Assembly (NCBI GenBank): GCA_963804745.1
Contig: CAWDRY010000012.1
Span: 30,562-94,561, forward strand
Source: an uncultured Gemmataceae bacterium
GTDB taxonomy: Bacteria > Planctomycetota > Planctomycetia > Gemmatales > Gemmataceae
Reading direction: 5' to 3'
Length of the DNA stretch: 64,000 nt
The number at the start of each line of letters is the position of its first letter. The first letter of the stretch is position 1. This document shows, one piece after another, positions 1,970 to 51,601 of this stretch. A program made the translations under genes and the position numbers. The notes under the pieces are model-generated. The model was not told where the DNA came from, made no database searches, and worked only from the letters and a program-made list of their open reading frames with translations.

Positions 1970-2753
1970 TGAACGGCTACAAGTGATTGAGGCGAACGTG
2001 AGGCAATTGAACGTCGTAACAACGCAATTGATCTCTATCATCGGGCCGGTCTATCAGGAAGCCGATAACATTAAGCCGTTTTTGCGCGAGGTGCAAACCC
2101 ACGTTAGGGAACCACACGAGATTCTTATCGTTTACGACTTCCCCGAGGACAACACCCTGCCGGCTATTGCGGCCATGCAACCGCCTTGTCCGAACGTCCA
2201 CCTCGTTCACAACACGTTAGGGAGGGGTGTGCTCAACGCCGTCAAGGCGGGGTTCCAGGCCAGCACGGGCGACGTTGTGATCGTAATGATGGCCGACCGT
2301 TCCGACGACCCGCGCGACGTGCCGGCTCTGGCCCGCCTGATTCGGGAGGGAGCAGACGTGGCCGCAGGTTCACGCTATGCCCGCGGCGGTTCCCAGGTAG
2401 GCGGGCCGTTCATCAAGCGCACGCTGTCACGTCTGGCCGGCGTTTCGTTGCACTACCTGGCCGGGCTGCCGATCCGTGATGCCACGAACAATTTTCGGGC
2501 CTACAGCCGGCGTGTCATCGAGCAGATACCCATTGAGAGCGAGGCCGGTTTTGCCCTGGCGCTGGAGTTGACCCTGAAAGCACACTGGCGAGGCTGGCGA
2601 GTTGCCGAAACGCCGACGACCTGGCGGGACCGCACGGCGGGACAATCGCGTTTTCGGCTGTTCGCCTGGTTGCCACATTATATGCACTGGTACTGGCTGG
2701 CCTTGAAACGGGCGTGGCTGGGAGGCAGTCCGCTTCAGAACCCGAGCGCCTAG
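1950..2753 (+). CDS. family 2 glycosyltransferase (DPM1-like dolichol-phosphate mannosyltransferase family); true start probably near 1986-2020
   Basis: IIGPVYQEADNI (GT2 N-terminal beta-strand + Y-N/Q-E), DxD-like ADRSDD, C-terminal two TM-like helices. Confidence 0.75.
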   Translation: MDGWGRSERLQVIEANVRQLNVVTTQLISIIGPVYQEADNIKPFLREVQTHVREPHEILIVYDFPEDNTLPAIAAMQPPCPNVHLVHNTLGRGVLNAVKAGFQASTGDVVIVMMADRSDDPRDVPALARLIREGADVAAGSRYARGGSQVGGPFIKRTLSRLAGVSLHYLAGLPIRDATNNFRAYSRRVIEQIPIESEAGFALALELTLKAHWRGWRVAETPTTWRDRTAGQSRFRLFAWLPHYMHWYWLALKRAWLGGSPLQNPSA

Positions 2754-2822
2754 CGAGGCTTCTTTCCAGCAGGAAGCCGCCAACTCGGTACTGCGGGTTC
2801 GGCATTCACGACCTTGTAAATG

Positions 2823-2915
2823 GGGACACTTTGCTGGCCGAGGGTGGCGGCACGTTTGAAACGTGCCCTACAATCGGATAAAGCCTCAAGCCAGGAAGCA
2901 AAGTGTCCCATTGTC
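2823..2915. promoter_or_regulatory. nested inverted repeats upstream of S53 peptidase gene (outer GGGACACTTTGCT arms; inner perfect 9-bp palindrome GGCACGTTT-G-AAACGTGCC)
   Basis: read directly: gggacactttgctggc ... gccaggaagcaaagtgtccc; ggcacgtttgaaacgtgcc at ~2850. Confidence 0.3.
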
Positions 2916-3025
2916 CCAATTTTTTAACTCACTTCACGCTTGACAAATAGAAAACCGTCGATTACGCTCACAATGTTAGTTTTTTCCTGTCCGAAACAGA
3001 ATTTTCCAGCATCGGGGAGGGTAAC

Positions 3026-5041
3026 ATGCGTAAACTGTTGAAGTCTCGTGGCAAGCGCTCTGGGCGATTCTCCTTACCGGCACGGTTGCGGGCTTTTCTC
3101 CGCGTGGAGGAGCTGGAATCACGGACGCTTCCTTCAACTACGCAAATCTTTCCCATGGTGGCTGACCATGTTACTCCACTAGCCCGCACTGTCAACTTGG
3201 GGCCTTATAAGCCCGCGCAGATCACGAGTGCCTATGGCTTCAACCAGCAAACCAACACCGGTGCCGGTCAGACCATCGCCATCGTCGATGCCTTCGACGA
3301 TCCCACCATTGCTTCCGACCTGCAGACCTTCAACAATTACTTCACCCCGCCCCTGCCCACCTCGACATTCATCAAGGTGAATCAGAACGGCAACACCAGT
3401 TCCTTACCGCCGCCAGCGCCGGCCAATGACGACTGGACGCTTGAAGTTTCCCTCGACGTGGAATGGGCGCACGTTGTTGCTCCCGGTGCGAACATCGTGC
3501 TGGTGGAAGCCACCTCGGACAGCTGGAGCGATATGATGACGGCCGTTAACACCGCCGCCAATCCTGCCACTTACGCCACTCTTGGGCCGCAGAATAGTAG
3601 TATACCGGCTGCTTCGGTCGTGTCGATGAGCTGGGGCGGCAGTGAGTTTACCACCACAACCACCAGAACGAGAACTGGCACGATCACGTATCCGGGCGAG
3701 ACTACCTACGATAGTATCTTTGCGGCCTATCCCAATGTCACCTTCGTGGCCTCCTCCGGCGATGACGGCGCGCCGCCCATATGGCCCGCTGTCTCGCCCT
3801 ACGTCGTTGGCGTTGGCGGCACTAGGCTCACAGTGACGAACAATACCTACGGTGGTGAAACAGGCTGGAGCGACAGCGGCGGCGGCGTCAGCAAGTACGA
3901 ACCCATGCCGTCGTATCAGAGCGTGGTTGCGCCACAGTTTCAGACCGGCACCAAAACGGCCAACCTGAAGCGAACCAGCCCCGACGTGGCCTACAATGCC
4001 GACCCGAACTCAGGCGTATACGTTCTCGACAACTATGACGGCGGCTGGTGGGAGGTCGGCGGAACCAGCGCCGGCGCACCGCAGTGGGCCGGCTTGTTCG
4101 CTGATGTTAACCAACTGCGTGCATCGCCCATCGGCAGCGCCGCTCTCCCTGCTCTCTACAGCCTGACAGGCGTCACCAAAACAACCACCAACACCACCGA
4201 TTTCCACGACATCACGTCCGGCAACAATGGCTACGCGGCTAAGACGGGCTACGATCTTGTCACCGGCTTGGGCAGCCCGATTGCCAACGGCCCGACTGTA
4301 AACGGGATTGCCACCCCCGGGATTATCTCGGCCCTGGCGGCTTCCAACGCCTCACATCTCGCACTCGCCACAAGCACCCAGGCGCCGGCAACCACCACCA
4401 CGTCGTCACGGGACGGTGACCGGTGGTCGCACTCTGTGGACATCCGCACGCTCGTAAATGATCCCAGCTTGATGAACGCCCTTCTTTCCGGCACGAACAG
4501 CACAGGCCCGTGGCACATCGTTCCGGTCTACTTCGTGGCCCAGCCGGCCCCTGTTACCAACCTCAGCAACGGCCCGGCTGTCACCACTATTCAAAGTCCT
4601 CTCCCAACCAGCAGAACAGCCGTCCCGGTTCCTCTCAGCCTGTTGTCCAGCAGTATTGAGAGCAAAACGGACCTTCCCGACGACGCGGATGCCATCGACC
4701 CGATGCAAGATCAGAGCATGTTGCTCGTGCCGGACGCTGTGGCTCCTGCGCCGCTGCCAGCGAGCCTCCGGGTTGAACCCGGAGGAGGCTCGCCGGCCCC
4801 TGTTTTGTCGCAAGACCAGGCCGTGGATGCGTGTTTCGCACATTCACTCTGGTCGGACGGACAGATTCCTTCCAGCCTGTCTCGGTCCACGGACGCAGCA
4901 CCGGCATCGACCGTTGAGCAAACCAGCACCCCGGCCAGTCGCTCAGCGGCTTCGGCGGCGTTGTTCGTCATGCTCGGTGCCGTGTGGACTTCGTCGGCCA
5001 GGGATAACAAATCTCGCGTCCGCCGCTGGAACTGGCGGTGA
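3026..5041 (+). CDS. secreted S53 (sedolisin/kumamolisin-like) serine-carboxyl peptidase with long Pro/Ser/Thr/Ala-rich C-terminal region and hydrophobic+basic C-terminal tail
   Basis: AIVDAFDDPT, SSGDDGA, GGTSAGAPQWAG (S53 catalytic Ser motif); N-terminus RLRAFLRVEELESRTLPS Planctomycete-type leader; C-term LFVMLGAVWTSSARDNKSRVRRWNWR. Confidence 0.8.
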   Translation: MRKLLKSRGKRSGRFSLPARLRAFLRVEELESRTLPSTTQIFPMVADHVTPLARTVNLGPYKPAQITSAYGFNQQTNTGAGQTIAIVDAFDDPTIASDLQTFNNYFTPPLPTSTFIKVNQNGNTSSLPPPAPANDDWTLEVSLDVEWAHVVAPGANIVLVEATSDSWSDMMTAVNTAANPATYATLGPQNSSIPAASVVSMSWGGSEFTTTTTRTRTGTITYPGETTYDSIFAAYPNVTFVASSGDDGAPPIWPAVSPYVVGVGGTRLTVTNNTYGGETGWSDSGGGVSKYEPMPSYQSVVAPQFQTGTKTANLKRTSPDVAYNADPNSGVYVLDNYDGGWWEVGGTSAGAPQWAGLFADVNQLRASPIGSAALPALYSLTGVTKTTTNTTDFHDITSGNNGYAAKTGYDLVTGLGSPIANGPTVNGIATPGIISALAASNASHLALATSTQAPATTTTSSRDGDRWSHSVDIRTLVNDPSLMNALLSGTNSTGPWHIVPVYFVAQPAPVTNLSNGPAVTTIQSPLPTSRTAVPVPLSLLSSSIESKTDLPDDADAIDPMQDQSMLLVPDAVAPAPLPASLRVEPGGGSPAPVLSQDQAVDACFAHSLWSDGQIPSSLSRSTDAAPASTVEQTSTPASRSAASAALFVMLGAVWTSSARDNKSRVRRWNWR

Positions 5042-6705: not shown

Positions 6706-9700
6706 TCATCTGTCCAGCCAAACATCATCGCTCGGCTGCCAGGCGCCGGCGCCAACCCTGAACAACTCCGATGAAACTTCAAGCCCGCTTGTGAGGATAG
6801 ACAGGGAGCCGGCATCGGCATCATCACCCATCTGCAACCACACCGAATCGCCCCGTTGATCCGCGCTCGGCGACTGCTCATCGCCGGGAACAGGCACCCC
6901 AACTCCCGCCGCTGGCCCGAAGAAGATCGAGGATAGAGGATGGAGAATGGAAGATAGAGGACGGCAAAGCGCTGGTTCCATCCTCAATCCTCCATTCTCC
7001 ATCCTCTCGCGCTGTGCAGGCTTGGCTGTCTCATCTCCCACGACCGCCACCGCAAGACCTGCGTTTGCCTGCACACCGGCTGCGACGGGAGACAGCACGT
7101 TAATGCACCCATCCAGCGCATCCCCCGCCGCATTGCTCGGCCGCGGTTCCAGATCGAACAGGAAATCATTCCCCTGCGCATCCGTCCCCCCCAACGCCGT
7201 CCATGCGCTCCCGGCATTCTGCATCAAGTTGATGATCGCCGCCCCCGCCGGCGCATCCGGCTTGACATGGAACGTAATCAGCGCCAGGCTGCCACCGGAC
7301 AACTCACCACTCACCACTCCACCACTCACCACTCCACCACTCACCACTCCACCACTCACCAGTCCGCGATACCCACTGATGTAAATAATCCCCGCCGCCC
7401 GGTCGACGTTGACCGTGAAGTTATCGAATGTCTGCGTCAGACTCCCCCGCACCACATCCCCCACCGAAACCACATCCACCCGGCTCGTGTCATAAGCAAT
7501 GACCAGATTCACCGAATCCAACCCAGCGAGCGGCGGGGTTGATCCCCGCCGTCCAGCCCCCGGGTCAAGATTCACCGGCACCACTACCTCCGCTTGCGGT
7601 TTCGCGCTGACCTCTGACCTCTGACCTCTGACCTCTGACCTCTGACCTCTGACCTCTGCCTGTCCGATACTCACCACCGGGTCCGGCCCCGTAACCCCCG
7701 GCGTCACCGCCGGCAGCACGGGAACGTTCGCCTGCGTAATCCCCACCGCTTCCCGTGCAATCTGCAAAGCATCCAACCCCGTCAGCACATTATCCCCGCT
7801 CACATCCCCGACGATGAGCGGATCAGCCAGCACCCACTGCCGAAACCCCGGATCAAGCCCGACCACCACACGCGAAATGCGCTGAGCATCAAGGCCGGTG
7901 TAAATTCCATCGCCGGTAACGTCGCCGAGGAAGCCCGAAACGTGAACGGCGGCGTCGTCCAGGGCGGTGATGCTGCCGCCGTTGATCTGAATGTTTTGCA
8001 AATCGAGGATTTCCTTCGCCCCATAACCCGCCGTGCTCGGCACCAACGCCGTCAATGTGGCAAAGATTGCCGATTCATTGTGACCAAGCACGATACCCGT
8101 TGGCGAGGAGTAAGTCACCACCGCCAGTCCCGGCGTAGCTACTCCACTCACTGTCAGCAGATTGGGATCATAAGCCAGGTTCAACGTTACCGAAGTAACG
8201 GTCACCGTCGCACTGCCCTCGTTCAATAACCTTACCGGAATTCCATCCGTCCCCTCCGTCCCATTCACCGCCTGCCCCGGCCCGCGCAAAGTCCGGCAAA
8301 CTAACAACCACCGCGTTGGGCGGGTTAATAACCACGAACGTGGTGACAAAATTATCCCCCGGCGTGCCGTCGCCGTTGCCGTCGAGCAAGTTGCCGTCAA
8401 CATCCTGGAACCCGTTGCTGGCACTGCGGAGTGTGACGGTATAGGTGCCGTCGGGCAGCACGCCAAACAGAGTTCCGGCAGCAGCACTACCGAGGACACC
8501 GCTCTGTCCGGTCTGGATGAAGGTGATGCGCTGCTGCCCTGCAACTGTATCGACGACCAGCGAGCCGCGAATTGGGCCGGCGCCGGTGCCGATGAGAGTG
8601 ACGTCTTCTGACCCCAGAGTGCCGGTCGAGTTGTCGTACAGGTTGAGCGAACTGGTGTCGAGTAGCCGGTCGAACACGGCCTCGAAGCCGGTGGCCGTGG
8701 GCGCAAAGGCAGTCACCCGTAACGTGGCTGCTTGGATTGACTGGATTAGCGGCGCGGACGTACTGCCCGGGAAGCCCGTGTCCCCGCCGTAGACCGCCGT
8801 GATCGAATGCCCGCCCACCGCCAGCCCGTTCGTGGTCCACGAAGCGTTGCCGCTACTGTCGAGCAGCCCTGTCCCCAGGCTCGTACTTCCGTCCATGAAC
8901 GTGACCGTGCCCGTAGGTGTACCGTCGCTGCTGCTGACCGTAGCCGTGAAGCCCACCGTTTGGCCCACCATCGCCGGATTGAGTGAAGACACCACGGTGG
9001 TCAAGGTTGATGGCAGGACCGTTATAAGCCCGTCGAGAGCATCACCGGCTGCATCGCTGGGCGCCGGTTGCAAGGTAAAATTGCCCAGGGCGGCGCCTGT
9101 CGCATCGCTGCCGTGCAGCACCGTCGTGGTCGTCTGCACGTGTTGCTGCAAGTTGATAATGGCTGCTCCCGGCAGCGCAGCCGCCTTGATGTGGAAATGA
9201 ATGATTGCCACACTGCCGCTGCCGAAACCGAAAATCGCGCCGGCCGACCGATAGGTACTCAGCCGAACCGTGCCCGCCGTATTGTCGTAATTGGCCACAA
9301 AGCCGTCAAACGTGCTGGTCAAGGTGCCCGGCTGAATGTCCCCCGCCGACAGGATTTCAAGCCGGCTGGTGTCGTAGGAGATGGCCAGATCGGCCTGCTC
9401 CAGGCTATCGGATCGATCCAGGTTTACCGGCACTGCGATGCTGCTACCGATTCCGCCGCTGAAGGTCGTGGGGATACTGATGGTAGCCACGGGCAATACG
9501 GTTTGCGTCAGGGCAACCGAGGTGCTGCCGGCGAAGTTCGTGTCGCCGCCGTAGACCGCGCTGATCGTATGCCGGCCGGGGGTCAGTGTCGTCGTGCTGA
9601 ACGTAGCCATGCTTCCCCTCTCCCCCTGGGAGAGGGGTAGGGGTGAGGGCGGCCGTGCCCAGCGGAATGCCGCCATCCTGGAACGTCAGCACCCCGCTCG

Positions 9701-12700
9701 GCCACTGACCACTGACCACCGACCACTGACTACCGACCACGGCAGTGAAAGTGATTGCCTGGCCCGCCGCCGCTGGATTGAGCGACGAAGTCGCGACAGT
9801 GCTCGTGCTCGCCTGATCGACGGTCTCGTACACGGCAGCCGAAGTGCTCCCCAAGGAATTGACATCGCCGCCATAAACACTCCTCAACACGTGCTGGCCG
9901 ACACTAAGACTGCTGACCGCAAAGATGGCTGTCCCGCTAGTGTCCAGCGTCCCATAACACAATACCGTGCTGCCATCCAGGAACGTCACGCTGCCTGTTG
10001 GAATGATGCCTACACTCCCGTTCACGGTCGTTGTGAAACTCGCGCTTTGGCCGAAGATAGAAGTGTTGACAGATGGGAAGGCCGTGGTGATGGTCGTTTG
10101 CTGGATCGCTTGAATCAAGGCCGCCGAGGTGTTGCCGAGGAAGTTGCCGTCCCCGCCGTACACCACCGTGATGCTGTAACTATCAACAGCCAGGACAGTA
10201 CTCAGATGGAAGGTGGCGATGCCAGCGTTCAGCGTCACCGTGCTCCTGCCTGGCAGCGGGTCCCCATCCCCCAGGAAGGTGACCGTGCCTGTCGGCGTGC
10301 CAGCACCCGGAGAGGCGGCACTTATGGTGGCGGTAAACGTGATGGATCGACCAAAGCCGGATGGGTTGACCGGCGATGTCAGAGTCACGGTAGTGCTGGC
10401 TGGGTTGACTGTTTGAGGTAGTGGATTCGACGTGCTCCAGCCCAGGTTCGTATCGCCGCCGTAGATCGCCGTTAGGGTGTGGGCCCCTGCCGACAGTGTT
10501 GCGGTGCTGAAGCTGGCCGTGTCGCCGCCAACGGCAACGGTGCCGATGGAAGTGCTGCCGTCCATGAACGTCATTGTCCCCGTTGGCGTGCCCGCCCCGG
10601 GTGTACTGGCAGCAATCGTGGCCGTGAATGTCACGCTCTGACCGTAAAGGGATGGATTTACCGGCGAAGTCACGGCTGTGGTCGTGGTGGCCTTGGCTTG
10701 AATGACCGTTTGCACCGTGCTGCCGCTGCTGCTGTTGAAGTTTGCATCCCCGCCGTAAGTCGCTGTGATGCTGTGTACACCCACGGCCAATGAGGACGTC
10801 GCATAGGTCGCCATCCCACCACTCAGGGTAACTACACCGCCGGATAGCACAGCCCGTTCTCCATGAATGTCACTGTGCCGGTCGGCGTGCCGGTGCCCGG
10901 ACTGACGGCGCTCACCGTTGCCGTAAAGGTCACGCTCTGGCCGAGGACCGACTGATTGGCCGGCGCACTGACCGTGGTGCTCGTGCCGGCCTGGTTGACC
11001 GTCTGCAAGAAGTCGCCCAACGTGCTGTCGTTGAAGTATCTGTCGCCGCCGTAGATAGCAGTGATGGTGTGCGTCGCCACCGTCAGGCTGCTGGATGTGA
11101 ACGTCGCCGTGCCGCCTTGCCCCTCTCCCCCTGGGAGAGGGGTTGGGGTGAGGGTACCCGTACCGATGGAGCTGCCGCCCTCCTCGAACGTGACCGTACC
11201 TGTCGGTGCCCCCCCGCCGGGACTGACGGGACTGACCGTGGCCGTGAACGTCACCGGCTGGCCGAATACCGATGGGTTGACTGACGAGGTCACTGTCGTG
11301 GTTGTGGCTGTCTGTGCGGGCACTTGTGTCTGGTAGGCGCCGATGTCGGGGTTGCGGATTGGCCGGGGCTGGCCGCGCTGGTCGGTCGTGAGGCCGTTTT
11401 GCGCCGGCACCGATGGCGGGACTGCCCGGCAGCAAGGCCATCGTCGCTGTCGGCCCTCCATTGTTTGCCAGAGGACCAAGCAAGGGATCAATCGCGTTCG
11501 GGTCGGAGCCGGTCACCCCAACTTGATTGTGGTTGCCATCACCGTTCCTGATGCCAGTCAGGCCGGTGCCGTCGCCGATCAGGTTATAGGCGCGTAGCGC
11601 TGGTGACGCTGCCGGCAATGTCCGGATCACTGATGGTCACTGTGTTGCCGGCCACAATGGTGCTGAGCAGCGTTACCGTATCCGAATTGCCGATGCCGCC
11701 GCCATACGCAGCAGAGTTGCCGGCCAGGGTAGAGTTGCTCACCGTCACCGTGCCAGCGGCATTGAAAATGCCGCCGCCGTCCCATACGGCGGAGTTGTCG
11801 GCGAGGGTACAGTTGCTCACCGCCCCCGTGCCATTGTTGTAGATGCCGCCGCCGTAGCCGTGGGCGGCGTTACCGTAGAGGGTGCTGTTGCTCACCATCA
11901 CCGTGCCACCGAGATCGTTGCAGATGCCGCCGCCGCTCCCTTGGGCGGAGTTGCCGGACAGAGTGCAGGTGCTCACCGTCACCGGGCCATTCCTGTTGTA
12001 AATGCCGCCGCCGCTCCCTTGGGCGGAGTTGCCGGACAGAGTGCAGGTGCTCACCGTCAGCGTGCTCCAATTCCAGTAGTTGCCTACATCGATGCCGCCG
12101 CCGCTACTTTGGGCGGAGTTGCCGGAGAGAATACAGTTGCTCACCGTCACCGGGCCACCGTAGCTGAAGATGCCGCCGCCGCCGCCGCCGCCGCCCCAAT
12201 AATTAGGATAAGCGCTGTTGCCGGAGAGGGTGCAGTTGCTCACCGTCAGCGGGCCATAATTGCAGATGCCGCCGCCATTGCCGCCGTTGGATGCGGAGTT
12301 GCCGGAGAGGATGCAGTTGCTCACCGTCAGCGTGTTCCAGTTGGCCATGTCGATGCCGCCGCCATCGCCGTTGAATGCGGAGTTGCCGGACAGGGTGCAG
12401 GTGCTCACCGTCACCGGGCCACTGTTGTTGTAGATGCCGCCGCCGCTGTATGCGGAGTTGCCGGACAGGGTGCAGGTGCTCACCGTCAGCGGGCTATTGT
12501 TGTAGATGCCGCCGCCGTTGCCGTTGGAGGCGGAGTTGCCGGAGAACATGCAGTTGCTCACCGTCACCGGGCCACCGTTGTTGTAGATGCCGCCGCCGTT
12601 GTAGTATGCGGAGTTGCTGGACAGGGTGGTGTTGCTCACCGTCACCGTGCCATAATTGCAGATGCCGCCGCCGTAGGATGCAGAGTTGCCCGACAGGGTG

Positions 12701-15700
12701 GTGTTGCTCACCCACAGCATGCCACTATTGTAGATGCCGCCGCCGTAGGATGCGGAGTTGCCCGACAGGGTGGTGTTGCTCACCCACAGCATACCACTAT
12801 TGTAGATGCCGCCGCCGTAGGATGCGGAGTTGTCGGACAGGCTGCAATTGCTCACCGTCAGCGTGCCATTGTTGAGGATGCCGCCGCCTGCACCGGGGGT
12901 GGATCCATTGCTGATGGTCAGGTTTTCCAGGGTGGCGGTGGTGTTCGCTGCCACCGTGAAGAGCAAGGAGTTCCACCCGCGGCCGCCGCCCTGGATGGTC
13001 AAAGCGGCTGTCGGGCCAGCAATGATGATCGACGCGCCGAGGGTGGCGTTGTCGAGGTTCAGTGCGCCTGCGGGCGCGATCGTCTGCGGCGTGGCGAAAA
13101 CCACGGGGTCGAAGGAAATGGTGAAGAGGCCGCCGTTGCCGTCGTTGTCCGCCTGGGCCACCGCATAGGACAGGCTGCCTGGTCCCGAGCTATTGATGTT
13201 CGTAACGATGTAGTAACCGGGGACCGCCGGGGCGATAGTGAACGACTGATCGACGGGGGCGGCGGCGCTGTAGTCGATGCTGCCCGCCTGCACCGCCACG
13301 ACGGTGACCACCGTCCCTGCCGGCGTGGCGCCGAGGATGGTGATTGTGTTGCCGGAGATGCTGGCATACTGCCCGCCCGCCACAATGCGGAAGCTGACCG
13401 CCAGGCCCGAGCTGGCGCTGGCGCTCACCGTAAACGGTGCGTTGCCATAGATCTGGTTGGCCAGCGGCCCGAAGCTGATCGTCTGCCTGACCGCGGTCTG
13501 ATAGGCGCCGATGTCCGGGCTGCCGGCCGGCCGGGGCTGGCCGCGCTGGTCGGTGGTGATGCCGTTAACGATCTCGCCGGCGCCGATTGCAGGGCTGCCC
13601 GGCAGCAAGGCCATCGTAGCCGTCGGCCCGCTGTTATTTTGCAAAGGGCCAAGCAGGGGATCGATCGGGTTGGGGTCTGAGCCGGTCACCCCGACTTGAT
13701 TGTGGTTGCCATCGCCGTTGCTGATGCCGGACAGGCCGGTGCCGTCGCCGATAAGGTTATAGGCACTGCTTCCCGTGATGATGCCGTAAATGTCCGGCTC
13801 ACTGACGGTGTTGCCCGCCACGATGGTACTGAACAATGTCACCGTCCCGGCGGCAGTGCCGATGCCGCCGCCGTTACCTTGGGCGGTGTTGCCGGACAGC
13901 GTGGAGCTGCTTACCGTCACCGTGCCGTCTTGGTTCCAAATGCCGCCGCCGTTACCCTGGACGGAGTTGCCGGCGACGGTGCAGTTGCTCACCGCCAGCG
14001 TGCCGTCGTTCCAAAGGCCGCCGCCGTTACCCTGGGCCGAGTTGCCGGCGACGGTGCAATTGCTCACCGCCAGCGTGCCGTCGTTCCAGATGCCGCCGCC
14101 GCTGCTGCTCGTGTACCCATTACTGATGGTCAGGTTTTCCAGGGTCGCGGTTGTGTTCGCGGCCACCGTGAAGACCGAGAAGTTCGACCCGCTGCCGCCG
14201 CCCAGGATGGTCAGAGCAGACTGCCGGGCCGGCAATGAGCACCGAAACGCCGGGCGTGCTGTTGTCGAGGTTCAGCGTGCCTGCCAACGTTATCGTCTGC
14301 GCCGTGGCGAAAACCGTTGCATCGAAGTTGATGGTGAAGAGTTCCCCCCTGGTGTCGTTGTCCGCCTGTTCGACCGCGTAAGGCAGGCTGCCGAGCACCG
14401 TGCTGTCGTTGCTGGTATTGGTGACGGTGTAGGCCGGTGTCTGATAGGCGCCGATGTCGGGATGGCTGCTTGACCGAGCATGGCCGCACTGGTCGGTCGT
14501 GAGGCCGTTTTGCGCCGGCGCCGATGGCGGGACTGCCCGGCAGCAAGGCCATCGTCGCCGTCGGCCCACCATTGTTTGCCAGAGGACCAAGCAGGGGATC
14601 TATCGGGTTCGGGTCTGAGCCGGTCACCCCAACTTGATTGTGGTTGCCATCGCCGTTGCTGATGCCGGTCAGGCCGGTGCCGTCGCCGATCAGGTTATAG
14701 GCGCGAGCGCTGGTGACGCTGCCGGCAATGTCCGGATCACTGATGGTCACTGTGTTGCCGGCCACAATGGTGCTGAGCAGCGTTACCGTATCCGAATTGC
14801 CGATGCCGCCGCCATACGCAGCAGAGTTGCCGGCCAGGGTAGAGTTGCTCACCGTCACCGTGCCAGCGGCATTGAAAATGCCGCCGCCGTCCCATACGGC
14901 GGAGTTGTCGGCAAGGGTACAGTTGCTCACCGCCCCCGTGCCATTGTTGTAGATGCCGCCGCCGTAGCCGTGGGCGGCGTTACCGTAGAGGGTGCTGTTG
15001 CTCACCATCACCGTGCCACCGAGATCGTTGCAGATGCCGCCGCCGCTCCCTTGGGCGGAGTTGCCGGACAGAGTGCAGGTGCTCACCGTCACCGGGCCAT
15101 TCCTGTTGTAAATGCCGCCGCCGCTCCCTTGGGCGGAGTTGCCGGACAGAGTGCAGGTGCTCACCGTCAGCGTGCTCCAATTCCAGTAGTTGCCTACATC
15201 AATGCCGCCGCCGCTACTTTGGGCGGAGTTGCCGGAGAGAATACAGTTGCTCACCGTCACCGGGCCACCGTAGCTGAAGATGCCGCCGCCGCCGCCGCCG
15301 CCGCCCCAATAATTAGGATAGGCGCTGTTGCCGGAGAGGGTGCAGTTGCTCACCGTCAGCGGGCCATAATTGCAGATGCCGCCGCCATTGCCGCCGTTGG
15401 ATGCGGAGTTGCCGGAGAGGATGCAGTTGCTCACCGTCAGCGTGTTCCAGTTGGCCATGTCGATGCCGCCGCCATCGCCGTTGAATGCGGAGTTGCCGGA
15501 CAGGGTGCAGGTGCTCACCGTCAGCGGGCCACTGTTGTTGTAGATGCCGCCGCCGCTGTATGCGGAGTTGCCGGACAGGGTGCAGGTGCTCACCGTCAGC
15601 GGGCTATTGTTGTAGATGCCGCCGCCGTTGCCGTTGGAGGCGGAGTTGCCGGAGAACATGCAGTTGCTCACCGTCACCGGGCCACCGTTGTTGTAGATGC

Positions 15701-18700
15701 CGCCGCCGTTGTAGTATGCGGAGTTGCTGGACAGGGTGGTGTTGCTCACCGTCACCGTGCCATAATTGCAGATGCCGCCGCCGTAGGATGCAGAGTTGCC
15801 CGACAGGGTGGTGTTGCTCACCCACAGCATGCCACTATTGTAGATGCCGCCGCCGTAGGATGCGGAGTTGCCCGACAGGGTGGTGTTGCTCACCCACAGC
15901 ATACCACTATTGTAGATGCCGCCGCCGTAGGATGCGGAGTTGTCGGACAGGCTGCAATTGCTCACCGTCAGCGTGCCATTGTTGAGGATGCCGCCGCCTG
16001 CACCGGGGGTGGATCCATTGCTGATGGTCAGGTTTTCCAGGGTGGCGGTGGTGTTCGCTGCCACCATGAAGACCGAGGAGTTCCACCCGTGGCCGCCGCC
16101 CTGGATGGTCAAAGCGGCTGTCGGGCCAGCAATGATGATCGACGCGCCGAGGGTGGAGTTGTTGAGGTTCAGTACGCCTGCGGGCGCGATTGTCTGCGGC
16201 GTGGCGAAAATCACGGGGTCGAAGGAAATGGTGAAGAGGCCGCCGTTGCCGTCGTTGTCCGCCTGGGCCACCGCATAGGACAGGCTGCCTGGTCCCGAGC
16301 TATTGATGTTCGTAACGATGTAGTAACCGGGGACCGCCGGGGCGATAGTGAACGACTGATCGACGGGGGCGGCGGCGCTGTAGTCGATGCTGCCCGCCTG
16401 CACCGCCACGACGGTGACCACCGTCCCTGCCGGCGTGGCGCCGAGGATGGTGATTGTGTTGCCGGAGATGCTGGCATACTGCCCGCCCACCACAATGCTG
16501 AAGCTGACCGGCAGGCCCGAGCTGGCGCTGGCGCTCACCGTAAACGGTGCATTGCCGTAGGTCTGGTTGGCCAGCGGCCCGAAGCTGATCGTCTGGTTGG
16601 TCTCGCTCTGGTAGGCGCCGATGTCGGGGTTGCCGGCCGGCCGGGGCTGGCCGCGCTGGTCGGTGGTGTTGCCGGCAACGACCTTGCCGGCACCGATCGC
16701 AGGGCTGCCCGGCAGCAAGGCCATCGTAGCCGTCGGCCCGCTGTTATTTTGCAAAGGGCCAAGCAGGGGATCGATCGGGTTGGGGTCTGAGCCGGTCACC
16801 CCGACTTGATTGTGGTTGCCATCGCCGTTGCTGATGCCGGACAGGCCGGTGCCGTCGCCGATAAGGTTATAGGCACTGCTGCCCGTGATGATGCCGTAAA
16901 TGTCCGGCTCACTGACGGTGTTGCCCGCCACGATGGTACTGAACAATGTCACCGTCCCGGCGGCAGTGCCGATGCCGCCGCCGTTACCTTGGGCGGTGTT
17001 GCCGGACAGCGTGGAGCTGCTTACCGTCACCGTGCCGTCTTGGTTCCAAATGCCGCCGCCGTTACCCTGGACGGAGTTGCCGGCGACGGTGCAGTTGCTC
17101 ACCGCCAGCGTGCCGTCGTTCCAAAGGCCGCCGCCGTTACCCTGGGCCGAGTTGCCGGCGACGGTGCAATTGCTCACCGCCAGCGTGCCGTCGTTCCAGA
17201 TGCCGCCGCCGTTGCTGCTCGTATGCCCGTTGCTGATGGTCAGGTTTTCCAGGGTGGCGGTTGTGTTCATGGCCACCGTGAAGACCGAGAAGTTCGACCC
17301 GCTACCGCCGCCCAGGATGGTCAGAGCAACTGCCGGGCCGGCAATGAGGACCGAAGCGCCGGGCGTGCTGTTGTCGAGGTTTAGCGTGCCTGCCAGCGCG
17401 ATCGTCTGCGCTGTGGCGAAAACCGTTGCATCGAAGTTGATGGTGAAGAGTTCCCCCCTGGTGTCGTTGTCCGCCTGTTCGACCGCGTAAGGCAGGCTGC
17501 CGAGCACCGTGCTGTCGTTGCTGGTATTGGTGACGGTGTAGGCCGGTGTCTGATAGGCGCCGATGTCGGGATGGCTGCTTGACCGAGCATGGCCGCACTG
17601 GTCGGTCGTGAGGCCGTTTTGCGCCGGCGCCGATGGCGGGACTGCCCGGCAGCAAGGCCATCGTCGCCGTCGGCCCACCATTGTTTGCCAGAGGACCAAG
17701 CAGGGGATCGATCGGGTTCGGGTCTGAGCCGGTCACCCCAACTTGATTGTGGTTGCCATCGCCGTTGCTGATGCCGGCCAGGCCGGTGCTGTCGCCGATC
17801 AGGTTATAGGCGCTATTGCTGGTGACGCTGCCGGCAATGTCCGGATCACTGATGGTCACTGTGTTGCCGGCCACAATGGTGCTGAGCAGCGTTACCGTAT
17901 CCGAATTGCCGATGCCGCCGCCATACGCAGCAGAGTTGCCGGCCAGGGTAGAGTTGCTCACCGTCACCGTGCCAGCGGCATTGAAAATGCCGCCGCCGTC
18001 CCATACGGCGGAGTTGTCGGCGAGGGTACAGTTGCTCACCGCCCCCGTGCCATTGTTGTAGATGCCGCCGCCGTAGCCGTGGGCGGCGTTACCGTAGAGG
18101 GTGCTGTTGCTCACCATCACCGTGCCACCGAGATCGTTGCAGATGCCGCCGCCGCTCCCTTGGGCGGAGTTGCCGGACAGAGTGCAGGTGCTCACCGTCA
18201 CCGGGCCATTCCTGTTGTAAATGCCGCCGCCGCTCCCTTGGGCGGAGTTGCCGGACAGAGTGCAGGTGCTCACCGTCAGCGTGCTCCAATTCCAGTAGTT
18301 GCCTACATCGATGCCGCCGCCGCTACTTTGGGCGGAGTTGCCGGAGAGAATACAGTTGCTCACCGTCACCGGGCCACCGTAGCTGAAGATGCCGCCGCCG
18401 CCGCCGCCGCCCCAATAATTAGGATAAGCGCTGTTGCCGGAGAGGGTGCAGTTGCTCACCGTCAGCGGGCCATAATTGCAGATGCCGCCGCCATTGCCGC
18501 CGTTGGATGCGGAGTTGCCGGAGAGGATGCAGTTGCTCACCGTCAGCGTGTTCCAGTTGGCCATGTCGATGCCGCCGCCATCGCCGTTGAATGCGGAGTT
18601 GCCGGACAGGGTGCAGGTGCTCACCGTCACCGGGCCACTGTTGTTGTAGATGCCGCCGCCGCTGTATGCGGAGTTGCCGGACAGGGTGCAGGTGCTCACC

Positions 18701-21630
18701 GTCAGCGGGCTATTGTTGTAGATGCCGCCGCCGTTGCCGTTGGAGGCGGAGTTGCCGGAGAACATGCAGTTGCTCACCGTCACCGGGCCACCGTTGTTGT
18801 AGATGCCGCCGCCGTTGTAGTATGCGGAGTTGCTGGACAGGGTGGTGTTGCTCACCGTCACCGTGCCATAATTGCAGATGCCGCCGCCGTAGGATGCAGA
18901 GTTGCCCGACAGGGTGGTGTTGCTCACCCACAGCATGCCACTATTGTAGATGCCGCCGCCGTAGGATGCGGAGTTGCCCGACAGGGTGGTGTTGCTCACC
19001 CACAGCATACCACTATTGTAGATGCCGCCGCCGTAGGATGCGGAGTTGTCGGACAGGCTGCAATTGCTCACCGTCAGCGTGCCATTGTTGAGGATGCCGC
19101 CGCCTGCACCGGGGGTGGATCCATTGCTGATGGTCAGGTTTTCCAGGGTGGCGGTGGTGTTCGCTGCCACCATGAAGACCGAGGAGTTCCACCCGTGGCC
19201 GCCGCCCTGGATGGTCAAAGCGGCTGTCGGGCCAGCAATGATGATCGACGCGCCGAGGGTGGAGTTGTTGAGGTTCAGTACGCCTGCGGGCGCGATTGTC
19301 TGCGGCGTGGCGAAAATCACGGGGTCGAAGAAAATGGTGAACGGGCCGCTGCTGGTGTTGTTGTCTGCCTGGGCCAGCGCATAGGGCAGGCTGCCGATCA
19401 CCGTGTTGTCGTTGCTGGTATTGGTGACAGTGTAGAACTGGGCCTGGCTGACCATTTGCACAAAGCTGCCGCTGCTGCTTACACAATTGCCGTCGCCGCC
19501 GTAGACTGCCGTTATCGTGTGGTAGCCGGCCGTCAAGCTGCTGGTCATGAATGTGGCCGTGCCGTTGCTGTCCAGAGTGACCATGCCGTTGCTCAGTGGG
19601 AAGCCCCCGTCCTCGAACATGACCGTGCCCGTCGGCGTGCCGGCGCCCGGCGAGGTGACACTGACCGTGGCGGTAAAGCTCACACTCTGCCCGAACACCG
19701 AGGGACTGGCAGATGAAGTCACCGTTGTCGTCGTGCTCGCCGGGTTCACGGTCTGGGTGAGAGTGTCTGAGGTGCTGGCCGTGAAGTTGCCGTCGCCGCC
19801 GTAAGTCGCCGTGATCGTATGAACGCCAACGGTAAACATAGACGTGGCGAAGGTGGCCGCTACCCCGCCGCTGACTGCTCCCGTGCCCACGGAGGTGCCG
19901 CCGTCCTGGAACGTCACTATCCCCGTCGGCCACTGGCCACTGACCACTGACCACTGACCACTGCATGTGGCCGTGAAAGTCACGCCCTGGCCGAACACCA
20001 ACGGGTTGGTCGAAGAATTCACCGTGGTGGTGGTGCTCGCCTGGTTGACGGTCTGGACGGTGCTGCCGCTGCTGACGCAGTAGGTGCTGTCGCCGCCGTA
20101 GCTGGCCGTGACGGTGTGGGTGCCGGCACTCAGAGTCGAGATGGGGAAGGAAGCAGTGGCAATGGCGCCGCTGCCGCTCAATGTGCTTTGCCCAAGCGAC
20201 GTGCTGCCGTCGCTGAAGGTCACCGTGCCGCTAGGCGTCTCGGACTGGTTCCCGGTGACGGTGGCGCTGAATGTGACAACATCGCCTAAGATTGACGTAC
20301 TGGAAGACGATGTCACCGTGGTGGTAGCGGTGCCGCCCGTGACGGTCTGTAGGAAGGTGCCCGAGGCGGGGCTGGCGCTGAAGTTGGTGTCGCCGCCGTA
20401 GCTGGCCGTGATGGTATGCGTGCCAATCGACAGCGCCGTGGTCGAGAACGTCGCCGTGGTGCCGCTGATCGAACTCGTGCCGATGGAGCTGCCGCCGTCG
20501 CTGAAGGTCACCGTGCCGGTTGCGCCGGTGGGCGAACTGTGGACCGTGGCCATGAACGTCACCGTCGAGCCGTAGACTGGGGAACTGGGCGTCGCCGCCG
20601 TCACCGTGGTCGTGGTGCTCGCCTGGTTGACGGTCTGGAGGAAGGTGCCGGTGGTGCTGCTGGCGGCGTAGTTGGTCCCGCCGCCGTAGGTCGCGGTGAG
20701 CGAGTGGGTGCCGGCGGCCAGGCTGCTGGTCGTAAATGTGGCGATGCCGCGGCCGGTGCCGCTGCCGTCGTCGGTCACATTGGCGAATCCCAGGGTGGTG
20801 GCGCCGTCCATAAACATCACGCCGCCGTCGATCGTGTTGCTGGCGCCGCCTTGCACGGTTGCGGTGATGGTCACAGGCTCGCCGAAGGCCGTCGGTCCCG
20901 ACGAAGTCACGGTGGTGGTCGATGCGATCGTTCCGGGAGTCAGCACGATCAGGGTGCCGTCCACCACGTCACCGGCGGTATCGTTGGGAGGGGGATCCAG
21001 CGTGTACACATCCCCTGAGCTAATGCCATATGCCTTCGTGGGAAGGCTTTGGTTGAGGGACAGCGGGACGCTCGCTCGCAAGTTGATGATACTGTGCCCT
21101 GCAGACTGCAGGTTGGTAAAGGCAATGTCCAGCAGATCGATGGTTTGATCCGAATTGTCCAAACCGGTGAAAGAAAATGCGTCGACGGCGATTGTGCCTA
21201 CTAGACCCGGCAACAGAGTATTGTTGGGGACGATGTTCCCGGCGTAAGTGAACCCGGGGGACAGCGGTTCCTTGAAAGCTACTGCCTGTTCGTTCGAGAC
21301 AGTTGTCGCCACAAACAGCTGCGTGGGATCGTAACTCATGGCGATGTCAAACTCGCCCAGGGTAGCCGCGCCGATGGCGGCCAAGCCCACGCTGACAGGC
21401 ACTGTTTGGAACTGAAAAGCATGGAACGGTCGGACGGCGACAAACATTTCTCCCGTTGACGACGGCGTGAGGCGCTCCTCGAACGGCTCGACGGACAGCC
21501 AGCAGCGCCGGCGCTCGGTCTTGCGGCGGCCGCGATGCTTGCGCCAGCGCCTCCAGGACCAAGTGTTCAATTCGACCATTTGCACCAGGTTTTGCCACCA
21601 ACGAAAAAATGTCATAATGCGGCTCCTCAA
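6706..21630 (-). CDS. giant (~4,900 aa if contiguous) secreted adhesin-like protein fragmented into 6 overlapping ORFs by frameshifts: N-terminal Planctomycete leader, 3 cohesin-like modules, dockerin-like repeats, many Big_3-like Ig domains, PbH1 parallel beta-helix repeat arrays, choice-of-anchor-Q-like domains
   Basis: ORFs 17302..21630, 14211..17699, 11584..14235, 9444..11630, 8168..9676, 6706..8706 all minus strand, overlapping, with domain continuity; N-term ...RRRCWLSVEPFEERLTPS; SGNSAxxGGGIYN repeats; YNLIGDGTGLxGISNGDGNHNQVGVTGSDPNPIDPLLGPLxNNxGPTATMALLPGSPAIGAG; GDVSGDNVLTGLDALQIAREAVG dockerin-like; AISYDTSRLEILSAGDIQPG cohesin-like. Confidence 0.6.
7302..7370. repeat. in-frame SSR (CACCACTCACCACTC)x4 within giant gene, encodes (GVVSG)n
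   Basis: read directly; same GGTGAGT/ACTCACC heptamer family as intergenic palindromes. Confidence 0.8.
7606..7652. repeat. in-frame SSR (GACCTCT)x6.5 within giant gene
   Basis: read directly: ctgacctctgacctctgacctctgacctctgacctctgcc. Confidence 0.8.
11335..19440. repeat. near-identical tandem duplication, unit ~3106-3110 bp, ~2.6 copies (boundaries ~11335/14445/17554/19440) inside the giant gene
   Basis: spurious +strand ORFs recur at 11603/14713/17822, 12375/15485/18591 etc. with identical translations; offsets 3110, 3109, 3106. Confidence 0.85.
12171..12194. repeat. (GCC)8 trinucleotide SSR encoding poly-Gly in beta-helix module; copies at 15282-15305 (x8) and 18391-18411 (x7)
   Basis: read directly; copy 3 is one unit shorter. 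Confidence 0.8.
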
Positions 21631-24049: not shown

Positions 24050-26045
24050 GTCCCCGGCCGTAAATAACCGTCCAACAGGGATCGATGGCAGGTGGAAATA
24101 GGGGTAGGGAGCCTGCCTCCGGCAGGCTCCCGAGTCGATCAGGATGGGGTCGTGGGGCACAACCCGGCGTCGACGGGTTTCGGGGCGACCGAACTGCGCA
24201 GGCGTTCGCGTTCCTGAGGTGTCATGTTCCAGGGCAGGTAGCATTGCGGCTCGGGCGGCGGCCGGCCCCCAGCTTTCGCACAGTCCGACAGGTAGGCCGT
24301 GAGCCATTTGGCAACGTCCATGTCCCAAAGCTGAACCGTTTGAAACAGCGAGAACAGCATGGCTGCCAAGCGTCCGCTCCACAACGATCCCGAGCCGTAG
24401 AAGTTCTTGCGGGCAATCACCGGGCCGCGCTGCCGGCGCTCGGCTTCGTTATTGTCCATCGGCACTTCGGGATGATCCACAAACACTGTCAGGCCGGTCC
24501 AGTGTTCTTTCAGGCTGTTGAGCGCTTTGCGTTGCGGGGGCCGCAACTTCGGTTGCGTCAATTCCTCGTCACAACGCTGCCGCATGTGTTCCACTTGTTG
24601 ACGCACGAATTGGTCAGCCTCGGCATAGGCGGTGGCGTTGGCGGTGACGGCCAGGCGCTGGTCATTGAGCTGGTACAAAGTGCCGATGGCTTCAACCCAT
24701 GACCAGGCCCAGTCGGTCAGCTCCGACCAACCGGTCAGCACCTCGAGGAAGTCGCGGCGCACATGGGCCCAGCAAAACGACAGGATGATTTTCCCCGCCT
24801 TGACCTGGGCCATGGCCTTGTAGGCGCTGTAGCGATCGACGTTCATGATGCCTTTGGCACCGTCGCCCAAGTGTCCTTCGGGAACCTCGTGGGAACGCGT
24901 TGGATCGAGCACGAACACGACCGACTCTGGGGCGGCGAAGACCCAGAGCTGCCACACGAAATTGGCTTTGTTCGGCTGCTTGACGAAGATGGGCCAGCGG
25001 GTTTCGTCGCCATGCCAATGGTTTTCGCCGCGATTGTGTTCGGCGAGGAGTACGTAGAGCGGCTCAAAGAGCGGCACGAGTTTATGCAGGCCGTCGGTGA
25101 TGGTGCCGGCGGCCAAATCAAGCCCATAGCTGCGTAATTCGGCGAGGACACGGTACAGCGGCTGGAAGAATTCGAACTTGTGCTGCAGGATCAGCACCCA
25201 GATGGAAATGCCGATGGCGCTTTTGCGAATGAGTTTGTCGGGTGGCGGAGCCGTGACCACAAGCGGTTGCTTGGGGCAGTTGCAGCGCCGGCGATAACGG
25301 CGGCGCTGATAGCGGCGGCGATGGGCACGCACTTCAATTTCGAGGATGTTGCCGTCGGTGGTGCCGGCAATCTCCTCAAACGGTTGGCCGCAAGCGGGAC
25401 AACATTTTTGCTCGTCGGGCAATGAGCAGTCTTCATGGCTGGTGGGCAGATGATCGTGCTGGCGTCGGCCGTGGCCTTGGCTGCCGCGCTGTTGGCCGCG
25501 TGGCCGCCGCTGCTGGTTGGTAGGCGCGGTCTTACCCTGCGCCGGCTTCGTCGCAGATGAGGTTTCGGATTTGCGGCCGAAGAGCCGACGTTTCAACTCG
25601 CGGATTTCGCCTTGCAGCAGTTGGTTCTGTTCCGCCAACGCCACTTCGCGCTGCCGGGCGCGTTGATGTTGGGCCTGCCAATAGTTGGCCTGCCAACGCA
25701 GATCGACGAGTTGCCGCCGCAAACGGTAGACGGTCACCAGAGCGAGCAAAAAGAGCCAAGCGAGCATACAAAAACGCTGCCACAACCAGGCCGCCGGGTC
25801 AGGTTGCGAATCTTCCTGGAAGTCGGCGTCGAGGACGATGGCCGGGGAGGCCGGAACCAGCACTCCTTGCTGAGCCGGAAGAGGAACCAGAGGATAGAAA
25901 GCGTTGGCATCCATGCTCCTCAATCGTAGGCAGCCAACCAGCCGCGGATTCAGCGAATGTCAAAAAAACCGCGGATCAAGGCAATAAACCAGGCAAACTT
26001 TACGCCCAGCGGACCCCGTTGGTCGAATGTTTACCCCCGGCCCGA
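24050..26045 (-). mobile_element. IS66-family insertion sequence (single-ORF ISBst12-like organisation, no tnpA/tnpB)
   Basis: imperfect terminal IRs ccggccgtaaataaccgtccaacagggatcg (24054-24084) vs rc of cggaccccgttggtcgaatgtttacccccgg (26010-26040); internal TnpC. Confidence 0.7.
24139..25923 (-). CDS. tnpC: IS66 family transposase TnpC
   Basis: N-terminal leucine zipper/coiled coil, CPACG zinc finger, DDE core (HGDETRWP...), C-terminal NNEAERRQRGPVIARKNFYGSGS. Confidence 0.85.
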   Translation of the reverse strand: MRSMDANAFYPLVPLPAQQGVLVPASPAIVLDADFQEDSQPDPAAWLWQRFCMLAWLFLLALVTVYRLRRQLVDLRWQANYWQAQHQRARQREVALAEQNQLLQGEIRELKRRLFGRKSETSSATKPAQGKTAPTNQQRRPRGQQRGSQGHGRRQHDHLPTSHEDCSLPDEQKCCPACGQPFEEIAGTTDGNILEIEVRAHRRRYQRRRYRRRCNCPKQPLVVTAPPPDKLIRKSAIGISIWVLILQHKFEFFQPLYRVLAELRSYGLDLAAGTITDGLHKLVPLFEPLYVLLAEHNRGENHWHGDETRWPIFVKQPNKANFVWQLWVFAAPESVVFVLDPTRSHEVPEGHLGDGAKGIMNVDRYSAYKAMAQVKAGKIILSFCWAHVRRDFLEVLTGWSELTDWAWSWVEAIGTLYQLNDQRLAVTANATAYAEADQFVRQQVEHMRQRCDEELTQPKLRPPQRKALNSLKEHWTGLTVFVDHPEVPMDNNEAERRQRGPVIARKNFYGSGSLWSGRLAAMLFSLFQTVQLWDMDVAKWLTAYLSDCAKAGGRPPPEPQCYLPWNMTPQERERLRSSVAPKPVDAGLCPTTPS

Positions 26046-26280: not shown

Positions 26281-27539
26281 ATGAAAGGCATTCCCATGGA
26301 CCCCATCACCATCCGTTACACCTTCCGTCCACGCCAGCGCAGCCTGGCAACCGGCCGGGTTGCCGACCTGTTCGGCGTCGATTTCGACGAGCCGCCGCAT
26401 CTTGTTGCCGACAACGTGCTACTCGACATCCGGCCCGGCGATCTCGTGCTGTTCACCGGCCCGTCCGGCAGCGGCAAATCATCGCTGCTCCGCGCCGCCG
26501 GCAAGCAACTCGGCGCCTTCGACGCCGCCTCTCTCTCCTTGCCGGACCTGCCGCTCGTCGATTGCCTGTCCGGCTCGCTGGAAGAACGGCTCGCCAAACT
26601 CTCGGCATGCGGTCTTTCCGAAGCCCGCCTGCTCCTGCGCAGCCCCGACGAACTCTCCGACGGCCAACGCTACCGTTTCCGCCTCGCCTACGCCCTGGAC
26701 CAACTGCCCACTGCCCACTGCCAACTCCCCACTGACCACTCCCCACTCACCACTCCTCACTTCCTGATGGCCGACGAGTTTGCCGCCTTTCTGGACCGCA
26801 CTCTGGCAAAGGTCCTGGCCTTCAATGTCCGCAAGTTGTGCTCGCGCAGCGGTGTCAGTTTCCTGCTGGCGACCACGCACGACGATCTGCTCGACGACCT
26901 CAATCCCGACGTGTGCGTGTACTGCCACGGCGACGGGCAGGTGGCATGTCAGCGGCGCGACGTAAAAAAAAAGACATCTCGTTTGTGCATGACCTTTGGC
27001 TGTCGGAAGGCGCCCGCGCCGATTGGCCGTACTTCGCTCGGTGGCATTACCGCAGCCATCAGCTCGCCTACGTCCGCCGGATCGTCCTGCTCTGGCACGG
27101 CGACGAGCCGATCGGCATCTGCGTCTTTAGCGCCGGCGGCGGCGCTGAAACTGCGGACTCGCTATTTTGGTCTTCACAATCCCCATTCGAGCCTGCACCT
27201 CTCGGCCCTCAATCGGCAACTCTGGCTGCTGTTGCGCGTCGTCCTGCATCCCACCTATCGCGGTGCGGGGATTGCGACGGCCTTTGTGCGGCGGGCGTGT
27301 GCGACGTGTCCGGTGGACTGGATCGAGACGCTGTCGGCGATGGGGCAGGTCAATCCTTTCTTCGAGCGCACGGCTTTACGCGCGTCGGCGTCATTCGCAG
27401 AGAGCGAAAGAATAACCGGGGCCGGTCGTATGGCGCGATCTACGGCGGGCACGATGTGCGTGTCAGCGCCGAGACGGTCCGGAAGAGCCGGTACAGCGAG
27501 CCGGTGTATTATGTGATGGATAATCGGCAGAAAGGATGA
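26281..27539 (+). CDS. soluble ABC-type ATPase domain fused to C-terminal GNAT-like acetyltransferase domain; frame broken at least three times (A9 run at 26964-26972, ~27150, ~27370)
   Basis: Walker A GPSGSGKSS, signature LSDGQRYRFRLAYAL, Walker B LMADEFAAFLD, H-loop LATTHD; GNAT motif A RVVLHPTYRGAGIATAFVRRA and motif B NPFFERAGFTRVG in alternating frames; embedded heptamer SSR 26700-26760. Confidence 0.55.
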
Positions 27540-27712
27540 AGGATGAAGGATGAAGGATGAATCGGAAAGGATGAGCGGTCACTGGCCCGAAGCGTTACCG
27601 AGGCAGGATTTACCCTCGCTAACGCTTCGGGCCAGTGTTCAAACTCGTTCCCACGGTCCGCCGTGGGAACGAGAGGAAGTCTTCATCTCATCCTTCATCC
27701 TTCATCCTTTCT
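27520..27712. repeat. composite palindrome between convergent genes: outer (GGATGAA)n/(TTCATCC)n arms, inner rearranged MITE core hairpin (cactggcccgaagcg...cgcttcgggccagtg) plus 13-bp-stem hairpin ctcgttcccacgg/ccgtgggaacgag
   Basis: read directly at 27530-27715. Confidence 0.75.
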
Positions 27713-28955: not shown

Positions 28956-28968
28956 CCCGACTTGAAAG

Positions 28969-51542: not shown

Positions 51543-51601
51543 ATCGCAAGTGAAAGCGCAACGAAGATGGAGAAATGCCCGTCCCAGGCGAGGAATCAGC
51601 C

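Follow-up and report, generated by a model that had tools for sequence, protein, structure and literature searches.

The window analyzed here, a 64,000-nucleotide (nt) stretch of DNA from an uncultured Gemmataceae bacterium (GenBank assembly GCA_963804745.1, contig CAWDRY010000012.1, positions 30,562 to 94,561 of the forward strand), contains a giant gene of about 15 kb that lies on the minus strand and is read from position 21615 down to 6706. Within it is a tandem array of a unit of about 3.11 kb (11326–19395, minus strand) that a sequence-only reading of the same stretch had singled out, both for a period not divisible by 3 and for a frame break that recurs at each junction between copies. 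As assembled, the giant gene is distributed over the open reading frames (ORFs) 17302–21630, 14211–17699, 14120–14590, 11584–14235, 9444–11630, 10832–11491, 8168–9676, and 6706–8706. Eight one-base edits, namely deletions at 17622, 14513, 11402, 14219, 11595, 9626, and 8283 and the insertion of one G at 10853, unite these pieces into a single ORF of 4,967 codons with zero nonsense codons. A plot of GC content at third codon positions by frame failed to delimit the frames in this gene, which is rich in Gly, Ser, Thr, and Asn.

In the encoded protein an N-terminal region with no Pfam match is followed by five Big_3_5 immunoglobulin (Ig)-like domains, the beta-helix array, about eight further Big_3_5 domains, a cohesin, another Big_3_5 domain, a second cohesin, and a C-terminal tail. 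Matches to Beta_helix (PF13229) scored 93–95 bits (cut-off 25.9) and those to Chlam_PMP (PF02415) 36–61 bits (cut-off 20.6), whereas the choice-of-anchor-Q cap (NF041518, cut-off 25) yielded 77.9–132.4 bits in the ORFs that hold intact sites and 83.4 bits for one cap alone. Cohesin (PF00963, cut-off 24.1) was detected at 39.8 and 37.2 bits in the ORF pieces and at 66.5 bits, in two matched stretches, in the repaired C terminus. Pfam searches covering every ORF piece and the 968 C-terminal residues after repair found no autotransporter beta-barrel (just Big_3_5 and Cohesin), and no Pfam dockerin was found at E ≤ 0.01; a duplicated dockerin-like motif, DV(T/S)GDG..TGLDA, was spotted by eye. A sequence search of the PDB with one full unit of the array returned no match. 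From this domain content the product is predicted to be a giant secreted or cell-surface protein, and nothing narrower is supported; the term "adhesin" applied to it earlier was a guess. The N terminus of the protein (21470–21615, minus strand) is arginine-rich, as is that of a neighboring 671-residue protein (3026–3140, plus strand), and in both proteins this region is followed by the motif E-x-(L/F)-E-x-R-x-(L/T)-P-S (SVEPFEERLTPSS and RVEELESRTLPS), a candidate export signal specific to the lineage.

As assembled, the array covers 8,070 bp, which amounts to about 2.6 head-to-tail units and not three full ones. Self-BLAST of the window aligned 11326–16289 with 14437–19395 at 98.0% identity (93 mismatches and 3 gaps over 4964 bp) and 11326–13179 with 17546–19395 at 97.4% identity, and a direct-repeat search gave start-to-start spacings of 3110/3111 for the lower pair of copies and 3109/3106 for the upper pair. 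Three long beta-helix modules of 1.85 kb are interleaved with two short-helix plus Ig modules of 1.26 kb, and each unit runs from a short beta-helix with an intact choice-of-anchor-Q cap through an Ig-like domain to a long beta-helix with a broken cap. The uppermost copy (copy A, 17650–19395) is partial and consists of the long beta-helix module alone; in a three-way alignment its homology to the other copies has a sharp 5′ edge at 19395/19396. Unit B (14541–17649), which extends from the first junction (J1) to the second (J2), is 3109 nt as assembled and remains in a single reading frame throughout, and unit C (11430–14540), which extends from J2 to the third junction (J3), has an assembled length of 3111 nt that includes two one-base insertions of its own. 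With one base removed per break, the period becomes 3108 nt. A (GCC)8 tract encoding Gly8 is present in copy C (12172–12195) and in copy B (15282–15305), and copy A has (GCC)7, encoding Gly7 (18391–18411); with its 3-nt unit this tract cannot shift the frame. The unit lengths of 3110, 3109, and 3106 proposed in the sequence-only reading are matched by the measured spacings, and its tract lengths of 8, 8, and 7 are as we observed. Its account of the locus therefore holds for the repeat and the frame breaks but needed correction in strand (the coding strand is the minus strand), in the level of identity (taken to be near 100%), and in the copy number, given that what had been described as a triplication has a top copy reduced to one module.

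Between units B and C there are 61 substitutions, clustered in blocks, in addition to the two insertions private to C; copy A has private substitutions as well, for example at 17817–17778. The three-way alignment revealed a mosaic among the copies, with tracts in which A and B agree against C and sites at which A and C agree against B, and these mosaic patterns together with the block-wise clustering are a signature of gene conversion. Both of the processes that the sequence-only reading had put forward as alternatives, recent duplication and gene conversion, are supported. Read in the inferred frame, the differences between B and C comprise 29 synonymous and 33 non-synonymous changes and give a ratio of non-synonymous to synonymous rates (dN/dS) of 0.38, whereas the two wrong frames gave 1.25 and 0.93. 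Because both units lie downstream of the first break and yet have a ratio of 0.38, they were translated while diverging, and a coding bias of this kind, towards third codon positions, argues that the copies are not the product of an artefactual duplication. Judged from these differences, the repeat is genuine and its copies are distinct sequences that diverged under translation. The possibility of an assembly artefact, which had been raised for the repeat itself, applies more probably to the frameshift that recurs at the junctions and to a period not divisible by 3.

The peptide PGSPAIGAG is encoded five times on the minus strand of the gene, and after three of these occurrences, as had been reported, the frame changes by +1 at GGCGCAAAACGG. 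In plus-strand numbering the three motifs start at 17649, 14540, and 11429, and the corresponding breaks are at 17622, 14513, and 11402. The 12-mer GGCGCAAAACGG occurs exactly three times in the window, at J1 (17614–17625), at J2 (14505–14516), where the sequence is the same as at J1, and at J3 (11394–11405), which lies about 70 nt upstream of the end of the array at 11326. The break at J1 falls inside the choice-of-anchor-Q domain, at position 31 of the 58 in the profile. The two remaining motifs, at 16712 and 13602, stay in frame (...GAGKVVAGNTTDQRGQPRP... and ...GAGEIVNGITTDQRGQPRP...) and belong to intact paralogous choice-of-anchor-Q sites in unit B (16572–16712, PGSPAIGAGKVVAGNTTDQRGQPRP..., which serves as the in-frame reference for the junctions) and unit C (13462–13602), all on the minus strand. 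NF041518 covers positions 1–31 of 58 at the junction sites, as opposed to 1–57 at the two intact sites. As assembled, the junction sites score about 45–51 bits; three minimal repairs of one or two bases raise this to 79–85 bits over positions 1–56 or 1–58, compared with 83 bits for the intact paralogue, and the three candidate repairs are indistinguishable by score (84.9, 85.3, and 85.5 bits). The flanks of J1 and J2 are identical across about 250 nt, and J3 departs from both no further than 8 nt before and 24 nt after the break. In the closest homologue, P0001 (64% identity), the equivalent junction is read straight through.

Five further breaks affect the giant gene, all read on the minus strand. 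The two insertions private to copy C, at 14219 and 11595, each break the frame and lie outside homopolymers. Beyond the array, a −1 break at 10853 is consistent with GGGG read as GGG, a +1 break at about 9626 (9616–9636) falls within a palindromic element with G/C runs, and another +1 break at about 8283 (8275–8295) lies in GCGCGGGCCGGGG. The sequence GCGC is found within 6 nt of 5 of about 8 independent breaks against a background of 0.10, which is of the form of a methylation-motif association; as the placement of the breaks is partly free, we give it little weight. The palindromic element, a hairpin-forming sequence of about 36 nt (CCCTCACCCCWACCCCTCTCCCAGGGGGAGAGGGG on the minus strand), is present in two near-identical copies at 9601–9640 and 11106–11145, with cores at 9616–9636 and 11121–11141 (expected number of chance matches 0.01). 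Each copy preserves the frame and encodes LTPTPLPGGEG, at the same loop in each of two Big_3_5 domains that have otherwise diverged, and the element resembles, from its sequence and position, the small palindromes that can insert into genes without shifting the frame.

Frame breaks in the window also affect conserved genes. The rpoN gene (33536–35037) is split inside Sigma54_CBD (positions 81/85), dnaX (36183–38005) inside domain III (position 69), a GFO_IDH_MocA oxidoreductase gene (42118–43523) inside its C-terminal domain (positions 116/119), and an FGE-sulfatase gene (58706–59330) in the catalytic domain, between profile positions 146 and 164. In window coordinates these breaks lie at 34390, about 37060, 43085, and about 59040, respectively. 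Each of the four breaks is of one base and can be placed at a short homopolymer, and that in the FGE-sulfatase gene is consistent with GGG read as GGGG. With one C added, rpoN aligns over 100% of its length, at 75–81% identity, with Gemmataceae sigma-54 proteins of about 500 residues, and the peptide GVGARDL is invariant in five such proteins exactly where the rpoN of the window loses one C; the match of the repaired rpoN places the organism among the Gemmataceae. The k-mer GCGCCGCG is found at the breaks of both rpoN and the oxidoreductase gene; for rpoN the alignment of homologues requires GCGCCCGCG, and the reading frames suggest the same repair for the oxidoreductase gene. If this repair is right, the common context points to an error that depends on the surrounding sequence, and an error of that kind would be needed for three identical contexts to be miscalled alike. 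The ORFs 26281–27516 and 26838–27539 (P-loop ATPase) are maybe a fifth split gene.

Taking these features of the sequence together, we think it probable that the array is a real in-frame duplication and that the frame breaks are one-base consensus errors of an indel-prone assembly; that is, we infer that the breaks are errors and not mutations. In this scenario a module composed of a short beta-helix with its cap, an Ig-like domain, and a long beta-helix with its cap would have been duplicated by unequal homologous recombination between long beta-helix modules, giving the order helix-X-helix-X-helix, and gene conversion would hold the copies at 97–98% identity. The restriction of copy A to the long helix, and hence this order of modules, fits one unequal crossover between two long-helix modules that already existed and not a triplication. 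The true unit would most likely be in frame, and its most probable length is 3108 nt (1036 codons), which applies if AAA was over-called as AAAA at the junction; it would be 3111 nt if a GC dinucleotide was dropped there. The protein in the organism would then have about 4,970 residues. The period would fail to be a multiple of 3 because one extra base, or two missing bases, was called at each junction. The same sequence context would have produced the same miscall at all three junctions, and the other five breaks would be one-base errors too. A survey of 109 related loci in other genomes and metagenomes recovered 13 internal direct repeats of 400 bp or longer, and the offset of every one is a multiple of 3; multi-kb repeats with offsets of 3363, 3522, 3222, and 2424 are among them.

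Errors of the class required are known. Published studies document residual homopolymer-length errors in long-read assemblies, which persist above all in repeats (PMC8812927), and gene-fragmenting indel errors that are denser in repeats, where polishing is unreliable (PMC8812927, PMC12007338). As in those assemblies, conserved genes are split here in mid-domain by breaks of a single base, most of which can be placed at short homopolymers; the likeness is incomplete in that two breaks lie outside homopolymers. Several observations sit uneasily with this explanation. Each break is a putative error, judged from the assembled sequence, and several breaks in ambiguous stretches were placed by seeking nearby homopolymer runs; those at 14219 and 11595 are away from any such run. 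A random error would not recur at the same base in three copies, so a systematic one is needed, and a run of four A residues is short for a systematic homopolymer error. The junction measures 19 nt as opposed to 24 nt at the intact paralogous sites, and a 5-nt deletion, which would be a real mutation, is an alternative suggested by this comparison. Furthermore, the breaks in the giant gene are +1 in seven cases out of eight, but those in other genes are −1 in three out of four, and the residues immediately after J1 and J2 (DQCGHARSSSHP) do not follow DQRGQPRP, the consensus of the family.

These points bear on a second explanation, in which the breaks are genuine mutations in a giant gene that recently became a pseudogene, and the junction indel arose once, in a long beta-helix module, and was spread to all three copies by duplication or conversion. 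Inheritance or conversion would place the same break in every copy, and the long identity of the J1 and J2 flanks and the shortened junction are in agreement with this explanation, as is a density of breaks in the giant gene (8 in 15 kb) above that in the rest of the window. In addition, the homologues from the nearest relatives (P0001, P0004, and P0121, 62–70% identity) all start in mid-domain and end in sequence that appears to be out of frame; these fragments come from contigs of 100–145 kb in metagenome-assembled genomes, however, and may share the same technical problem, so that they could reflect common technical problems or real decay in the gene family. Against inactivation stand the dN/dS of 0.38 in units downstream of the first break and the absence of nonsense codons after repair. 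The differences in the flanks of J3 would further require either that the break predates the divergence of B and C, which conflicts with that ratio, or that the conversion tract was very short. Finally, dnaX, which is essential in the bacteria studied, and rpoN are broken in like manner, so that in this assembly a frame break is evidence neither of a pseudogene nor of recoding, and a technical cause is more economical. We therefore regard inactivation as unlikely, though it keeps some weight as an alternative.

It is more doubtful still that the array, or its copy number, is itself an artefact of assembly, produced by the concatenation of strain variants or by wrong expansion or collapse. Repeats of several kb at 98% identity are hard to assemble, and the split conserved genes mark this assembly as otherwise error-prone. 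The copies are nevertheless separated by 61–90 fixed substitutions with mosaic tracts and a coding signature, J1 and J2 each link distinguishable flanks, and comparable internal repeats are present in related genes of other genomes at the offsets given above. The ends (1–1490 and 2425–3914) of one 3,914-bp metagenome contig that encodes a homologue (locus L066) are 100% identical, with an offset of 2424, and probably reflect the collapse or wrapping of a repeat in a short-read assembly.

Almost no credence attaches to the junction as a programmed +1 recoding site, at which most ribosomes would stop 105 codons past the first junction and rare shifts would add 1036-residue modules to give nested isoforms. 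If true, one gene would encode a ladder of surface-protein isoforms differing by whole modules of 1036 residues, and occasional read-through would account for the purifying selection on the downstream modules; the same site does occur at every module boundary, and the downstream frames are open and under such selection. We rejected programmed frameshifting on the grounds that the site offers no slippery or stop context, with no stop or recognisably slow codon and a zero frame that stays open for those 105 further codons, that no Shine-Dalgarno-like element lies upstream, that the downstream RNA folds no better than shuffled sequences (z = −0.03 and +0.36), that the intact junction of P0001 shows the site not to be conserved, and that the five non-recurrent breaks of the giant gene would be left to explain. 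Separate tandem genes were ruled out by the position of the breaks inside a 58-position domain and by the absence of a start or secretion signal after them.

The closest known systems are the choice-of-anchor-Q and right-handed beta-helix proteins (NF041518, PF13229, PF02415), in which the same ...LLPGSPAIGAG...TTDQRG...DIGAYQ cap is found that ends each module here. Homologues number in the thousands and occur in Planctomycetota, Chloroflexota, Verrucomicrobiota, and other phyla, but here five modules are combined in one protein of about 4,970 residues with Ig and cohesin domains, and in the assembly a frame break interrupts three of the five caps. Scans of public genomes and metagenome contigs with a 500-residue junction query recovered just distant loci, at no more than 56% identity; exact-protein matching of RecR, a response regulator, and a flotillin-like protein yielded no source genome or close strain, and a literature search found nothing on "choice-of-anchor Q." With the chlamydial Pmp autotransporters the protein has in common the short repeat of the GGxI/FxxN type (PF02415) and a beta-helix passenger architecture; it differs in phylum, in its much larger and multi-modular form, and in the lack of a detected autotransporter barrel. 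Giant genes and non-cellulosomal cohesin and dockerin proteins have been described in freshwater Planctomycetes (PMC6461901). The "planctosome" proposal likewise concerns very large multi-domain secreted proteins with cohesin modules in a planctomycete, although those are from Nemodlikiaceae and this one from Gemmataceae, the domain sets differ, and no Pfam dockerin is found here.

The streptococcal alpha-C/Rib and staphylococcal Aap/Ebh proteins carry near-identical intragenic tandem repeats whose number is altered by recombination. Like them, and as is characteristic of surface proteins of the variable-number tandem repeat type, the array consists of head-to-tail, near-identical coding repeats homogenized by conversion, in which unequal crossing-over would gain or lose whole modules; unlike them, it has an unusually long, multi-domain unit (about 1036 codons) and just about 2.6 copies. 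The length of the protein may vary through recombination at the array, and the earlier suggestion that unequal crossing-over could change it is supported by the multi-kb internal repeats of related genes. The junction is not of the kind expected for simple-sequence contingency (phase variation), as it has neither a long homopolymer nor a multi-unit repeat, just A4 and (GC)2.

Short tandem arrays of heptanucleotides, such as (CCACTGA)n, (ACTCACC)n, and (CTGACCT)n, are numerous in the window. Those within the giant gene are at 7302–7365, 7607–7658, 9702–9740, and 19930–19963, and these four are translated in the frame of the gene into 7-residue repeats (SGQWSVVSGQWP twice, VSGGVVSGGVVSGG, and RGQRSEVRGQRSEV); with a unit of 7 nt, a change of one or two in copy number would shift the frame. 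The others are at 26700–26761, 27532–27561, 28967–29076, 31073–31147, 38098–38363, and 39220–39256, and several of the arrays outside the giant gene are paired in inverted orientation with a gap of a few bases. Published work on heptanucleotide arrays in Gemmataceae was searched for, and none was found. Elsewhere, a 21-nt unit repeated 14.9 times at 97% identity (56303–56615) encodes about 15 copies of GKASGEA in ORF 55031–57421, a beta-helix/NosD and GDSL-lipase protein, and a 36-nt unit (GGCGAGCGGCGGGCTTCACCCCCGCCGTGCGTTGCC) is repeated 2.8 times at 98% identity at 39524–39624. An intact transposase gene of the IS66 family (24139–25923, minus strand) lies 2.5 kb upstream of the giant gene, and an IS1-like fragment and two DUF4058 paralogues are found further along (45676–46515, 48434–49222, and 51575–52378, plus strand). 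Searches of the window for Rfam families and for tRNAs were negative.

Automated annotation would present the giant gene as 6–8 fragments, and the indels of this assembly are to be corrected before pseudogene counts or screens for recoding or phase variation are run on the genome. On the explanation that we favor, the locus would encode one more giant modular planctomycete surface protein whose length is changeable through the recombination of long near-identical modules, as is expected for proteins of this class.

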